DNA of 64,000 nt from Rhynchobatus australiae (lineage: Eukaryota): assembly GCA_034780895.1 (NCBI GenBank), contig JAUZTB010000027.1, positions 44,217,689 to 44,281,688 of the forward strand, in the 5' to 3' direction. The notes beneath the pieces are model-generated. The model worked only from the letters and a program-made list of their open reading frames with translations. It was not told the origin of the DNA and did not search any database. Below, piece after piece: positions 2,645 to 62,352 of this stretch (position 1 is the first letter of the stretch; the number at the start of each line of letters is the position of its first letter). The translations under genes and the position numbers were made by a program.

Positions 2645-2719
2645 GAAGGAATCGTTTCGGAGAATTCCAAAGTCTGCTTATTTTTACGGCGGCATTTTAG
2701 CGATCGTAGTTTCCGCTCT
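2645..2719 (-). pseudogene. Decayed cytoplasmic (ITIM-like) exon remnant of gene A
   Basis: *NAAVKISRLWNSPKR aligns with HYAAVDFNRSRNVSRR of gene B exon 19091-19192. The preceding intron block (2895-2915) matches 19291-19312; a CR1 fragment abuts it. Confidence 0.55.
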
Positions 2720-3097
2720 TGGCATTGTTCCTGAAGAACATCTCTTGTTATCTGGCTCATTATCTTCAGTTGGTCACTTATTGCGATCAAATGTTTCAGT
2801 ACAATATGGATGACAATCAAAACTTAGTTTTTCACTGTATCTTGGTACATGTAACAATAGTAAAGCAAGTCCAATTCTGGTACTGTCGATTTAACTGAAC
2901 TAGAGGTCAAGTGCACTACTGTTTGCATAAAATTGTATACACAAAACTGTGAATACTAAGATGATGTTTCCGTTCTATTAATATTGAAACCTATCGATGT
3001 TGATGTTGCAATTATATAGTTTCAATAGATAACAGATTCAATAACTTCAATAACCTTGGCGGGTGTTACTAAAAATGTGCTTTCTCTGGATCTTACT

Positions 3098-3195
3098 CTA
3101 TTTTTTCTTAGTTCGACACCAAATCACGAGACAGAGCATTAGCATTAGAAGCATCAATCCAGCTACCGTACGACCAGGCTCCAAGGTAGAAGAAC
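3098..3195 (-). CDS. Gene A transmembrane exon with Arg and terminal stop
   Basis: [35 protein letters not shown] sits one base before a retained gtaag donor. The 99-nt exon frame matches the gene D TM exon. Confidence 0.8.
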
Positions 3196-6100
3196 CTGCA
3201 ACATTGTAAGGATATGTACTGTGGTGACTGTGAACTAAAATACACGAAATACTTAATATGTTCGTTGGGTTGGATAGGGTCACTAGTTACTTTCGAACAA
3301 TCTAACAGCGAAAACAAAACAAACACTGAAGCACAGAACATATAAATGTTTAAAAATATAATACGCAAAGTAACTTTTCCAACAATAAGGATGAGGTATG
3401 ATGAATTGATATGTGAAGAGGACTCCAGGTTTGGGTTACAAGAGTTACTGTAGGTTACAAGTGCTGGAAAACCAAGGATTGCTCAGTAGGGGGATTGGAG
3501 AGGTGCGGTTTCCAATAACTGGAAGAGCTTTCTTGGTTTTATGATTATTAGCTTATTAAACTAAAGGTAGATGTTTGACGACAGTTGCTCGACAATCTTC
3601 CCCTCGACACCCAAGTGAATTATAAAAGTTTCCAGGTTTCCATGAAGATTCTTTCAGTTTGCCCTGGGATTAATTTTAGAATTTTTTGCTTTAACTGGCC
3701 AAAATGGCATTGGGAACGACGAGTTTACGGGCGGTAGGGAAGGGAAAGGGAGAATAACTGGGGGAAGAAGAGAATAGAGCGTCAAGATCGAAATCTGAAA
3801 ACAAATAATTTCAATTGAATTTATGTGTATTTCACTTGCGAGTATCAGCAAAAAGAAATTGTACAATATATCGCTTTGCGAAATTAACAAGAGATGTCTC
3901 GCTTTTATTCGACTGTTGTCCTACCTTGGTTTAATTCGTGAACATAATAGACAGCAATTGCTGATGTGTTAAGGGAGATATGAGATACCAAACATGTATA
4001 ATTGCTGTCGTTCTGATCTGGCTCCGTAACGGTCAGAGAACTGGAGGCCTCGTACAGTCCCTCGGCGTTCTGTTCTGCCTTGGTATGTATTCCTATTGTT
4101 GTTTCGACGCCATTTTTATACCAAGTAAGCGTGAAGTTCATGGGATAAAATGCAGCAGTTTCACACACGAGAATATAGATCGCGGCTGAATTCCTTTCAG
4201 GTATTTTGGCGAAAACTTTCAGTGGGGTTGGGACAGCTGCCAAACAGAGAATAAACACAGATTAATTACCTCGCACCAGTGACAGATTATTTTTACTTAA
4301 AAAAGTATTATGAACCTCGAATCCCTGAACAAAAGTTGCACCTATTGGATATTACCCACATGAGCAAGTAATACCTAATCCATATCTCTAACAGACACTA
4401 GAATTTGCTAAGGCAGGCGGACTGAGTGGACGCTATGTGACGTCAGATGTTCATGTTTTCTTCCATCTCTTCCCGAAACCATGAGACTAGGTCAGTAGGA
4501 TGAGATTCTCTGCATTTATTGCACCCGGATAATGAATAACAATCTGCATATTACTGACGATAAAACGAGAAGGGTCGTTGTTTTTTTTAACGGGATTCAC
4601 AAAGGAAACATAGTAATTGAGAAAAAAAAACATTGTTTCAATCACTCAGAGCTATCGGCATCACAGCTCCTTCCTACTGTATTATTTATTAAAGGACGGT
4701 GCGGATCAGTTTTGAGGTATTCAAACACCAGATCACTGCATGAAGCAGCTGGCCACTTGTGGGTTGCACGCCAGGTTTCAAATCATTGATACTAATTTTG
4801 TTGTCCCGTGCAATATTAAGCAACAATGAAGGTAGTCAGAGAAAGAGCTGTGGGTTCAAACCATGGCTTTGGTAAGAGAGGCGCTTAGAAAGACGGGTTT
4901 TCTGTCACTTCGTTATCGAATATTTATTCCGTGCTTCAGCTGTTAGGTATTTAATACGTTGAATATATCCCAATCTATATTCCATTGTGCTAACATGATG
5001 CGCATTGCGGCACTAGCTGTAAAGCATTACCTAATTAAGAAATGCCATGCATAACGCTCCTTAACGTACGTTCCATTGTGCTTCGTAGACTCTTATTTAA
5101 AAAGACAGAGAGGCACGTTATTATCTAAAGGGAGTCGACTTAGGCTACAACAAATATGACAGTTTTAAGAGACGTCCTTAAGAACACACGGTGGTACGAG
5201 GTTTCGGAAGGAGATTGCAGAGTTTTCAGCCTTCTTCGCCCGCCTGGAGAAATTGCTTCCGGAGAGAAAGAAGGCGGCAGAATTGGAGAGCATAATTTGT
5301 TGGAGGTTTTTTGGATTAAAGTAGATTAAAGATTTATAAGGATTGTAAATAGATTTGGAAAATAAAGATGAGAACATTAAAAGCAAACCCTCGGGTTACC
5401 GCGGCCTATTGTTGGCCGGCAAACTGAAGAGAATCGGAAATTGTATGAACTAGGACAGTGGCAGCATAGCGTCTGCCTTCTGTTTCAAGAAATTTAGATG
5501 AATACCAAATAAACATTCGAAATACGTATTACCTGCAGTGTACTCTGGTTATTTTGTTAATTTACCATTCACTATTATAAGTGATTCGGTAGCATTTCTT
5601 GAAGCCATAACATCACGGGTCAGCGAACACCTACAGACTCCAGAATCTTGCACTCTGCAACTCAAAGTACCAACTTTCTTCACTCCCCGGACCAGTTCTC
5701 TTTTGTAGGCCTTTGTACATTGCAATCTTACTCGAGATTGTTCATTTAAATTTTAAACTACGGCAACTGCAAAGATCGTCTCCTCTCGGGGTTTTACTGG
5801 ATTTCTACAGAGTAAAGATCCATGGAGAACTATGAAAGAATTTTAAAATGAGGATTTTTGAATCTTAAAAACTTAGCGTCAGGTTACCAGTGTTGGCGAG
5901 CAGATGAAGAGAATAGAAAATATAACATCGACAAGTGGTATAAGTGACACCTTCGTAGTAAATCGGTTTCATCGCGTATTATATCCGATATAGGTAATGG
6001 ACAATTCATTCTCCGGTTATTTTCGCTTACCATTCACAATTAGAAGTGATCCGGTACCATTTCTTGGAGACATTCCTTGACGGGTCACCGAACAGTAATA

Positions 6101-60698: not shown

Positions 60699-61456
60699 AA
60701 GGGGAAGGGGAGAGATATAGCCAGGGAGGAGCGATAGTGAGATGATTCTATTTCGATGGCATTTCCGCAGAGTGGAACTGCGAAATGAATACATACAAAT
60801 ATATTATTTTTTAAAAATGTATATTATTCGATTTGCCTTGGTCGAATAGATGTCGCTTGCGGAATTAATTTCCAGAGCAGACTGCAAGTTTCCGAGAGTC
60901 GTGATGCGAGTGGGTGGAGGAGGTGCGCGAATTGCCTCAGATCTCTCCTGAGATCAAAACTCTCCCAGAGTTTTCCTATTCTTAACTTTATGAAACTGTA
61001 GTTTGATTTCGAGCGGCACTTTCTTCACAAACGTTTCACCGTTTCTCCCGTGAAATACTGGAAGGCTGAAGATCCCCTTCCAGTTATCCGAACTGCGGTT
61101 TCTATATTCAGTGTCACAAATGTCGAAGTAAATCAACGGAAAGCGATATCTTAATTGTTGTTGATAACATAGACTAAGCTGGCTACAGGAGCTTGCTGGC
61201 CCTATTTAAATTAGATTTGTAAGGGATATCCCAAATAAAGCCGCTGTGTAATAGGTAGTTGAGGGTTAAGATTTGGCCTGGAGTTAACTTTAGAACCGTA
61301 GTGGTGCTGGGAGTGCGAGTGATGCAGAAGACGTGTGGAAGTTGGAGAATGGGAGGGGAGGGGAGTTGGAGCAAGCGTTGGCAAGTAGAGAGGAGGTTGG
61401 ACTGTCAGGGTAAGAGAAGCCGCAGGCGGGTTGGGCTAGCACCGACAACAACTGGG

Positions 61457-61760
61457 GCAGTACAGTGGCTGTCTCACAGCTCCGGAGACCTGGGTTCAAT
61501 CCTGGCTTCCGGTGCTGTCAGTGTGGAGTTTGCACTTTCCCTCTGTAACTGTGTGGGTTTCCCCAGGGTGCTCCGGTTTCCTCCCACATCCCAAAGGACT
61601 GCCTACGGATTGGCCAGTATAAATTACTCCCACGTGAGTGAATGCCAATACAACTGAACAGAGAGGGGAAAATGGGGAATGTTATGGGGAAATGAGAAAG
61701 GTGATAGGATTTATGGGATTGCTCTGCCAGGTGCCGCCATGGACACGACGGGCCGAATGG
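61457..61760 (+). mobile_element. Older V-SINE
   Basis: gacctgggttcaatcctg..gtggagtttgcac..gggtgctccggtttcctcccacatcccaaag; a similar copy lies at ~60100-60410. Confidence 0.75.
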
Positions 61761-62149
61761 TGGCTCAGTCTGTCCCTAACAATCTGAGTCCAAGTAGGGA
61801 GACAACAGCATGATACCACAAGACAGTGACACGCTTGTAAAATTGAAAACTAAAGAAGAAAATAATAAATGACCAAATGAGGAAATGTGGCCATTGAGTA
61901 AAGACAAACCCTTATATCGAACAAAAAGCTTGAAAGCAAACGGCCTTTAACTAACAATACTTGTATGCTGAGCGATCTGATCTGCCAACATACAAATTAA
62001 ACATCAATGCTGTCGTTTATATTTCGAATTAAATGTAGTGCACTGCCCATGGTNNNNNNNNNNNNNNNNNNNNNNNNNNNNNNNNNNNNNNNNNNNNNNN
62101 NNNNNNNNNNNNNNNNNNNNNNNAGCGCCAAATGTTACGGGGGAGTGTG

Positions 62150-62352
62150 CTTGCGGAAGGGCTGTTGTGTTGAGGGAGACGCGAGATATAATTGGCGTCG
62201 CTTCGGACTGGCTGAATCTCTGTCAAAAAGTTGGAAACCTCGGTGTTCTGCCAGTGCAGTTTCGAAGCCATTTCAACCAGAGCACAACGTTCTCGGGATA
62301 AAACTCAGCCGTTTCAGATGTCTGGGGTAAATCATAATCGGGGTTGGCGGCC
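62150..62352 (-). pseudogene. Pseudogene E heavily deleted C1 exon
   Basis: Fragments PPTPIMIY, SETAEFYPENVVLW, QNTE, LTEIQPVRSDANY and VSLNTTA match C1 of genes A/B. The acceptor is mutated; 62440-62700 resembles gene A's V-C1 intron. Confidence 0.7.

Follow-up and report, generated by a model that had tools for sequence, protein, structure and literature searches.

The 64,000-nt window of Rhynchobatus australiae DNA analyzed here covers part of an extensive family of germline V(J)-C1 receptor genes, which we consider likely to constitute a paired innate receptor system. The observations behind this reading are the exon structure, the size of the family, its tail motifs, the repeated appearance of arginine-containing transmembrane (Arg-TM) segments beside inhibitory sisters, and the descent of one of the window's genes, gene A. 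Three intact-looking or near-intact genes (A, B and D) and two relics (C and E) occupy the window, and their paralogous exons have canonical AG/GT sites and join in phase 1; like all features of the window given below, they lie on the minus strand. Scored against family profiles, the best exons (four V and two C1) reach 43-139 bits, with the reversed window and three shuffles reaching at most 9.2 bits; the profiles were built with V26, C24 and C4 included, so that the top scores are partly high by construction. Pfam, independent of these profiles, identifies a V-set at E 7e-9, with C1-set matches at E 2e-13 and 1e-12. V and J-like strand share a single exon, in contrast to the split V and J segments of rearranging Ig or TCR genes, and within the window there is no RSS with two or fewer mismatches (three occur in 664 kb), in agreement with the claim in the preliminary description that these receptors do not rearrange. 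That description had further proposed at least five same-strand paralogs with a common exon set, of which the shared strand and the paralogy stand but the full exon sharing does not: the 44-nt tail exon is present only in the tail of B and in D, with none detectable in gene A, and C1 and TM exons are not universal, as D has no C1, C consists of a leader and a frameshifted V only, and E comprises C1 and TM. The cluster as first described is thus partly confirmed: it exists, and its inventory needs correcting. Because the region is 17% N, in 244 N runs, copy numbers and some gene models are unsure.

In gene B, a leader exon (26675..26729) precedes a V-set exon (26183..26503) with the J-like strand NGSGSHLIVHG and 70% identity to Narcine P0009, followed by a C1 exon (24581..24886) featuring FYP, a Cys-Trp spacing of 13 residues and CxVxH. 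Its tail consists of an uncharged TM exon (21633..21746), a 44-nt exon (19684..19727, phase 1 to 0), a 102-nt exon with the ITIM-like AHYAAV (19091..19192) and a last exon with the ITIM LSYATL and the ITSM TEYAEV (18783..18953), and, like that of gene D, splices in frame to a stop codon; the RefSeq model P0009 is spliced in the same way, from a B-like V into B-like TM, 44-nt and 102-nt exons. Between the first C1 and this tail lie a degenerate C1 relic with stops (23232..23438) and the 3' third of a second C1 exon (22412..22513), which abuts a 100-N run at 22514-22613 and is near-identical to the gene B C1, the downstream introns of both being 68% identical. The V-C1-(C1)-TM-multi-ITIM architecture proposed earlier stands in its ITIM/ITSM tail, with the second C1 a candidate, and this "V-C1-C1" gene straddling the N run may be two collapsed genes. 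In X1, a sequencing run of unknown kind that was used as contigs and may derive from the assembly's own sample, a 583-nt contig spanning 24594-25176 matches the second C1 copy at two letters, as would be expected if the second C1 exon were complete. In X1, contig depth sums to about 10 at the leader and V and about 5-6 at C1 and downstream, a drop that hints at two collapsed genes or haplotypes, which, depth being no copy number here, stay uncounted. The stretch that separates the first C1 from the N run shows no TM homology, for which reason an exon at 23884, considered as a decayed TM exon, was dropped.

Gene D passes from a leader exon (54288..54345) and a V exon (53894..54176), crossed by a 10-N run and some 40 nt too short, directly into an uncharged TM exon (53536..53634), which has a GC donor instead of GT and is followed by the 44-nt tail exon (49975..50018) and a last exon with LHYCDV and the ITIM VTYAQV (49351..49503). 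Its V-TM-ITIM architecture, without a C1, is upheld in exon order and tail, but with a shortened V and a noncanonical donor. The two remaining members are pseudogenes, as previously surmised: C retains a leader exon (29979..30033) and a V exon with one extra base near its 5' end (29475..29796) and has no C1 or TM of its own, and E consists of a frameshifted C1 exon (62130..62352) and a TM exon with in-frame stops (60509..60631), with a V relic about 2 kb past the window end.

Gene A bears out the V-C1-TM(Arg)-stop architecture: its 55-nt leader exon (6520..6574), its V exon (6031..6351) with a germline J-like G strand ([11 protein letters not shown]) and 34 internal N that keep the frame, its C1 exon (3925..4236) and its TM exon (3097..3195) join through canonical splice sites into 786 nt (34 N) of open sequence encoding 261 aa. 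A frameshifted 3' V-exon fragment (5561..5705) sits inside the V-C1 intron. The TM exon carries Arg (CGT) at the position of Cys (TGT) in the inhibitory paralogue L089, and a TAG stop falls one base ahead of the homologous donor. Further downstream, the decayed remnant of what was the first ITIM-type tail exon (2645..2729) aligns to L089 (blastn, 74% over 85 nt, E 3.5e-8; alignment score 39, best of 30 shuffles 29) and features a 1-nt deletion, loss of the Tyr and an altered ancestral acceptor, so that position 2645, formerly taken as the end of the cluster's exons, marks no working exon. An inhibitory relative of gene A with matching exons is found in the Mobula RefSeq model P0233. On the gene A branch the C1 has a dN of 0.085 vs. 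a dS of 0.35-0.39 (three-point estimate over about 100 codons), and the resulting dN/dS of about 0.22-0.25 partly reflects time before tail loss; the corresponding V estimate gives a negative dS and is unusable, and the V branch in the tree is short (0.065). Together, the Cys-to-Arg change, the stop at the end of the TM exon, the decayed ITIM exon and the conserved C1 demonstrate, at the level of sequence, that gene A derives from an inhibitory gene.

What gene A does now is less firmly indicated. Its Arg, with polar residues upstream, is placed at the edge of the membrane and misses by one residue the register in which the embedded Arg of the family lies, so that the gene is a candidate activator; placement in the activating register was dropped, as the TM alignment shows the one-residue offset. 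Gene A could instead be an early pseudogene, with the window holding only inhibitory genes and debris and pairing confined to other parts of the family: small substitutions suffice for the stop and for the TM change, the Arg is off register, the tail exons are decayed or gone, and the neighborhood contains a frameshifted V and two relics. We regard this as possible but doubtful, as leader, V, C1 and TM are open with canonical splice sites although the tail relic has decayed, and as the C1 dN falls well below its dS and the V branch is short. Most likely, gene A is a tail-less derivative retained as a weak activator or decoy, which would make it a testable example of an inhibitory receptor with tail loss.

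Clear activating-type genes, L062 and L034, are found outside the window. Among 18 TM exons in this genome 14 are uncharged, three (L062, L034 and L023) place an Arg six residues before the LVI-type core and gene A places it at five. L062, a V-C1-TM gene with an embedded Arg, is sister to the ITIM-tailed L070 (96/93), the two being identical at 69/100 positions in V and 77/101 in C1; no TM was found for L070 and no V or C1 for L034, both with N runs nearby. In the catshark, the Arg-TM protein P0230 and the Tyr-tailed P0260, a gene model without a TM segment, share 93% identity over 227 aa. L062, L034, P0225, P0230, P0006 and P0064 have Arg as their charged TM residue. A tree uniting the six Arg-TM rows as one clade is rejected (p-AU 3e-7); Arg-TM forms recur in several subfamilies, as expected of paired receptors. 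The proposed paired inhibitory/activating system is accordingly supported for the family, which has both types, and more weakly for the window, whose own candidate activator is gene A. The genome also contains two zeta-family adaptor loci. In most comparisons dN/dS is higher for V pairs than for C1 pairs (0.25-0.99 vs. 0.29-0.83, medians 0.64 vs. 0.43), and it exceeds 1 in no pair.

The family is far larger than the window, in line with the expansion in cartilaginous fish suggested previously. Genome-wide matches comprise 34 V and 33 C1, profile hits in the window plus 100 loci amount to 40 V and 37 C1 (a few being halves of one broken exon), and two family clusters lie on contig C27, at 43.86-44.28 and 49.37-49.79 Mb. 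With a full-length profile, 32 of 38 matches are chondrichthyan-type V-C1 or V-only receptors, Callorhinchus among them, with one record length per species for the chondrichthyan family matches; the family is common to sharks, rays and chimaera. Separate trees differ in clarity: in the C1 tree the 42 domains of the family are all united in a single clade (SH-aLRT 99) that excludes 14 in-genome outgroups, but the V tree is poorly resolved, with two outgroups inside the family on long branches. A G-x-G J-like strand is seen in 20 of 26 aligned V exons, the V domain is compact (54-59 residues between core cysteines), and ITIM/ITSM tails are present in most members. Among homologues the C1 is single or absent, except in P0222 with two, arranged V-C1-V'-C1. 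A homologue search with a single V as query returned no matches, and both the search for representative homologues and the PDB profile searches were swamped by titin-like multi-domain proteins. Members are automatically named SIRP-like, B7-H6-like or tapasin-like, with several RefSeq names NCR3LG1-like. We found no description of the family in the literature, where some papers or supplements may still mention it; apparently without a name of its own, it is obscured in databases by a set of at least five conflicting names.

By analogy, the family likely works like SIRP. Common to both are an N-terminal V-set followed by a true C1-set domain, inhibitory members of the ITIM type, sisters that are activating or lack a tail, and clustering of the genes. 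The V-set with its germline J-like G strand and the ITIM/ITSM tail are found here as in SIRP, the latter in B, D and many paralogues, and the family C1 domains feature the true C1-set hallmarks of SIRP, FYP, 13 residues from Cys to Trp and xVxH (PMC2785349; Hatherley 2009). Members could then be chondrichthyan SIRP orthologues, relocated to another chromosome, with one C1 and sensing CD47, a reading also favored by many SIRP-like RefSeq names and by the top two PDB sequence matches of P0233, SIRP-alpha (2wng, E 9.5e-19) and SIRP-gamma (4i2x, E 3.2e-16). SIRP-alpha, however, ranks only 10th for P0005 and 6th for P0238, and SIRP has two C1 domains where the family has one (gene B's candidate second C1 at the N run aside). 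The human SIRP locus lies beside NSFL1C/PSMF1 at 20p13; here, SEP-domain (NSFL1C-type) and PI31 matches fall on C48, where the 200 kb surrounding the SEP-domain gene (C48:20.88-21.08 Mb) contain neither V nor C1 exons, whereas the family, with its dozens of genes and compact V, resides on C27. SIRP-beta has a TM Lys. The family's activating-type members carry Arg, as opposed to the DAP12-type SIRP activators, SIRP-beta signaling via DAP12 (PMC3716694). The CD47 family search gave no match anywhere, controls included. SIRP orthology is in our view unlikely, and membership in the SIRP family is contradicted by synteny and the number of C1 domains.

The cluster's neighbors are KIAA0895L, EEPD1-like and ELMO genes; among 150 flank ORF candidates (of 234) examined with Pfam, only one host gene was named, and another exon is putatively AMFR-like. 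Six of 13 MHC class I matches lie on C81 and none on C27; the cluster sits on neither the MHC scaffold nor that of SIRP's neighbors. Linkage to TCR-gamma was rejected, TCR-gamma being on C135, where it adjoins a STARD3NL-type gene; a search for the opioid-precursor family gave no matches. A role as B7-H6/B7-like ligands or adhesion molecules, not recognizing receptors, would fit the NCR3LG1-like names and PDB matches that include PD-L1, CD276 and B7-H6, but a separate B7/tapasin-like V-C1 gene (label inferred) at C27:27.6 Mb falls outside the family C1 clade, and rapid birth-and-death, ITIM plus ITSM tails and recurring Arg-TM sisters are receptor-like, making this very improbable.

Other systems resemble the family in part. 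PRARP and Xenopus VJC1, compared by description only, are, like members of this family, non-rearranging VJ-C1 membrane proteins with ITIM/ITSM, but they are reportedly few-copy, disulfide-linked and near MHC-paralogous regions, whereas the family here is large and probably paired, and in genes A and B each domain has no cysteines other than its two core ones. NKp30 has an Arg-containing TM, and NCR3 has a single V and no known C1, all known members being activating. Shark NCR3, described as an MHC-linked VJ gene (PMC12227049), shares the single-exon VJ domain and the Arg-containing TM of activating members, but most family members have a C1, most TM exons are uncharged and MHC class I is absent from C27. 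In fold searches with V, VNAR, NCAM, CD79b and TCR tied at Z 13-14.5, with SIRP and NKp30 absent among the matches listed, and UrIg2 was the best PDB match of the gene B C1 alone, summed over three domains. UrIg/UrIg2 are also elasmobranch non-rearranging VJ-then-C1 proteins but have 3-11 C1 domains, disulfide dimers, liver/gill expression and MHC or AgR-complex linkage (PMC12227049); the family shows neither three or more C1 nor such linkage. UrIg-like C1 domains on C81 fall outside the family C1 clade. The NITRs of bony fish are comparably expanded germline VJ-type paired receptors and have no known C1, and KIR2DL/KIR2DS offer a precedent, in KIR2DS, for activators arising from inhibitors via TM charge gain and tail loss, KIRs having C2 domains and Lys. 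MDIR, too, is not known to have a C1 domain. In skate, its V domains are described as CD300/TREM/pIgR-like (PMC3031540).

In light of paired-receptor biology, we propose that the ITIM/ITSM members would likely damp leukocyte activation, recruiting SHP-1/SHP-2 through tandem ITIM and ITSM, and that the compact V would bind a self ligand on the surface of cells, or a mimic of it made by a pathogen. The minority of short-tailed Arg-TM members would likely activate via an ITAM adaptor, pairing with FcR-gamma or CD3-zeta by the mechanism of FcalphaRI, LILRA and NKp30-type receptors, and birth-and-death together with ectodomain exchange would keep pairs matched. A more speculative and rather improbable reading makes the family a whole-genome-duplication sister of SIRP: one VJ-C1 gene would have resided on the ancestral chromosome behind human 16q, 20, 8q and 7p14, outside the MHC paralogon, with tetrapods keeping the chromosome-20 copy as SIRP, cartilaginous fish expanding the 16q copy into their main KIR-like paired system, and gene A being midway through a change from brake to accelerator. 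TCR-gamma, with its STARD3NL-type neighbor, may belong to the same paralogon, which would then be a second cradle of antigen-receptor-like genes.

The earlier interpretation of the locus is thus partly supported, and the inhibitory descent of gene A, the possible two-gene collapse at the 100-N run and the KIAA0895L/EEPD1-like/ELMO neighborhood, off the MHC and SIRP-neighbor scaffolds, are new. To our knowledge, few of the innate or NK-like self/non-self receptors of sharks and rays have been identified, and a family with dozens of genes, old enough for chimaera to share it and with inhibitory forms matched by activating ones, makes a strong candidate for that role. Its many intact genes with a single-exon VJ plus C1, situated away from the MHC and from the antigen-receptor regions, also bear on the origin of the RAG-invaded precursor.

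Every family exon in the window lies on the minus strand, in keeping with the preliminary description of at least five same-strand paralogues; the exon set which that description gave as shared did not hold up, the 44-nt exon being found only in the tail of gene B and in gene D. Gene A consists of a leader (6574-6520) followed by V (6351-6031), C1 (4236-3925) and transmembrane (TM; 3195-3097) exons, which splice into an open reading frame of 261 aa, closed by a TAG that lies one base 5' of the TM donor. Gene D has no C1: leader and V lead directly to TM, followed by the 44-nt exon and by a final exon that carries LHYCDV and VTYAQV. 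Its V exon, which spans a 10-N run, is ~40 nt too short, and its TM donor is GC. Pseudogene C retains a leader and a V with one extra base (30033-29475), and relic E a broken C1 and a broken TM, its V lying just beyond the window end. The domains are V-set and C1-set by Pfam, and family-profile scores on reversed and shuffled windows stayed at or below 9.2 bits. The V exon, which encodes its own J-like G strand, runs up to a splice donor. Of 26 V exons, 20 retain G-x-G, and the window lacks any recombination signal when up to two mismatches are allowed.

Gene B opens with leader (26729-26675), V (26503-26183) and C1 (24886-24581) exons, after which come a degenerate C1 relic, a 100-N run, a second C1 represented by its 3' third (22513-22412), an uncharged TM exon (21746-21633), and 44-nt, 102-nt and last exons bearing the motifs AHYAAV, LSYATL and TEYAEV. 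The previously proposed V-C1-(C1) gene is one of two readings. Where it can be seen, the second C1 hardly differs from the first, but it has its own downstream intron (68% identity), with homology ending just before the TM acceptor, and no TM relic was found in the interval from the first C1 to the N run; the region may hold a single V-C1-C1 gene, or else two genes or haplotypes that were collapsed into one at the gap. In the Narcine homologue P0009, 70% identical to gene B in V, a B-like V is spliced straight to B-like TM and tail exons without a C1. An old duplication of a non-coding block, lying upstream of both gene B and pseudogene C, pairs 26881-29054 with 32020-34053 at 67-75% identity, and 27526-27737 also aligns to 29217-29428 at 92%.

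The window (G000:C27:44217689-44281688) samples a larger family. Genome-wide searches returned 34 V and 33 C1 matches, and profiles gave 40 V and 37 C1 matches in the window plus 100 fetched loci, a few of these being halves of a single broken exon. The family forms two clusters (C27:43.86-44.28 Mb and C27:49.37-49.79 Mb); members outside these lie at C27:41.38 Mb, on C64 and on small contigs. A 664-kb region is 17% N. Among the 7988 best-worded candidates scored, a full-length profile matched 38 proteins, each species having a single record length, so that the range is reported firmly only for Chondrichthyes. The chondrichthyan-type matches number 32 and come from Heterodontus, Scyliorhinus, Heptranchias, Mobula, Hemitrygon, Narcine and Callorhinchus. 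Database names of the matches vary from SIRP-alpha-like, SIRP-beta-like and NCR3LG1-like to tapasin-related, Ig lambda-like and class II-like. The five matches from reptiles, multi-VJ receptors that lack C1, reach 49-56 bits vs. 84-129 for whole family V domains. Python and turtle proteins P0253, P0248, P0194 and P0265 go under the wrong names of titin-, hemicentin- or pIgR-like; they are ITIM-bearing multi-VJ receptors that have no C1. Of the V relatives retrieved from outside Chondrichthyes they are the closest, and they may form a reptile family that has no name.

In a quick tree all 42 family C1 domains fall in one group (SH-aLRT 99), apart from 14 other in-genome C1 domains (Ig, TCR, UrIg-like, tapasin-like and others, labelled from sequence and position). 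The V tree, of 65 rows and 107 columns, shows old subfamilies common to sharks and rays, its base being weakly resolved. A compact V domain is predicted (pLDDT 88): 54-59 residues separate the core cysteines, C' and C'' strands are not assigned, and its nearest folds, VNAR, NCAM, CD79b and TCR V, tie at Z 13-14.5. One subfamily in cluster B (L062, L063, L070, L072, L082 and L096) has a mostly degenerated G-x-G motif (5/6) with V and C1 intact. A WWIY-C TM marks a divergent subfamily of loci L085, L086 and L115 with L011 and L010; a YATP/YAAP motif, not ITIMs, closes L115 as well as homologues P0237 and P0239. A different V(J)-C1 gene, L156 (G000:C63:14.41 Mb; 8399-8764 and 4836-5141, minus strand), lies outside the family C1 clade, with a PPP-containing FG loop, a GNGT strand and an apparently broken V, and is possibly PRARP- or CD28H-like. 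On the family's own scaffold, L116-L117 (G000:C27:27.6 Mb) carry a B7/tapasin-type V followed by C1 domains, a candidate B7-H6-like gene.

Inhibitory-type and activating-type forms coexist in the family. Of the 18 TM exons found in the R. australiae genome, 14 are uncharged; three (L062, L034 and L023) have an embedded arginine six residues before an LVI-type core, and one, that of gene A, has it at five. L062 is a contiguous V-C1-TM(Arg) gene whose sister is the ITIM-tailed L070, and the catshark Arg-TM protein P0230 shares 93% identity with the Tyr-tailed P0260 across 227 residues. Because a single clade of six Arg-TM rows, grouped by the TM trait after the V tree was known, is rejected (p-AU 3e-7; 21 V+C1 rows), we infer that anchors of activating type were gained more than once or that ectodomains were swapped. 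The genome contains two zeta-family adaptor loci.

The sisters of gene A are inhibitory genes (Mobula P0233 and L089-L091). Its TM codons read CCT GGT CGT vs. CCT GGC TGT in L089, a stop codon closes the TM exon, and a relic of the first tyrosine exon persists at ~2729-2645, its Tyr lost and one nucleotide deleted; the 44-nt and last exons are not detectable. Its C1 branch has dN ~0.085 and dS 0.35-0.39. These would be the remains expected from a switch of an inhibitory gene to an activating or decoy form, for which KIR2DS provides a parallel. However, because the arginine sits out of register and follows polar residues, activation by gene A is putative at most, and the gene is possibly in early decay. 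A second gain of a TM arginine, in canonical register, is seen in L023 (9533-7814; G000:C27:43.997 Mb), where ITIM exons decay downstream and V and C1 appear broken.

Cluster A is flanked by a first exon that we take to be AMFR-like and by a gene with HhH motifs, presumably EEPD1-like, a paralogue of which lies at C98:80.26 Mb. Beyond the EEPD1-like gene lie KIAA0895L (PDB 7z5g, E 6e-19) and an ELMO-domain gene at C27:44.93 Mb, with further ELMO-type matches at C98:80.63 Mb and on C48. Going by human map positions, all these neighbours on C27 presumably represent a 16q-type block. The SIRP neighbours NSFL1C and PSMF1 map to C48, a second SEP match on C135 being taken as UBXN2B; no V or C1 exon was found in 200 kb around the SEP gene on C48, and C48 holds none of the 150 C1 matches that were scored (211 candidates). 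MHC class I lies mainly on C81, and TCR-gamma-like V and C adjoin a MENTAL-domain gene on C135. There, at L118-L120 (G000:C135:28.33 Mb), the C and V exons sit directly beside a STARD3NL-type gene, presumably matching the human 7p14 arrangement. Human 16q, 20, 8q and 7p14 are paralogous, which would place the family on a chromosome that is sister to the one with the SIRP locus; the family may thus have an ohnologue origin.

SIRP-alpha ranked 1st, 10th and 6th in the PDB across three full-length queries. The earlier view of an expanded, non-rearranging V(J)-C1 family in cartilaginous fish with inhibitory-type and activating-type members stands. In the number of its C1 domains, its activating residue and its locus the family departs from SIRP; NCR3 and UrIg are set apart by linkage and architecture. 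No description of the family emerged from a full-text literature search, several key subscription papers being outside its reach, nor from the accessible passages of PMC12227049, PMC11599192, PMC10751288, PMC6795676, PMC3031540, PMC7916673, PMC3716694 and PMC2785349. The large paired-receptor family of Chondrichthyes, with a germline VJ-C1 unit at its core, is real, apparently without a name so far, and likely works like SIRP.
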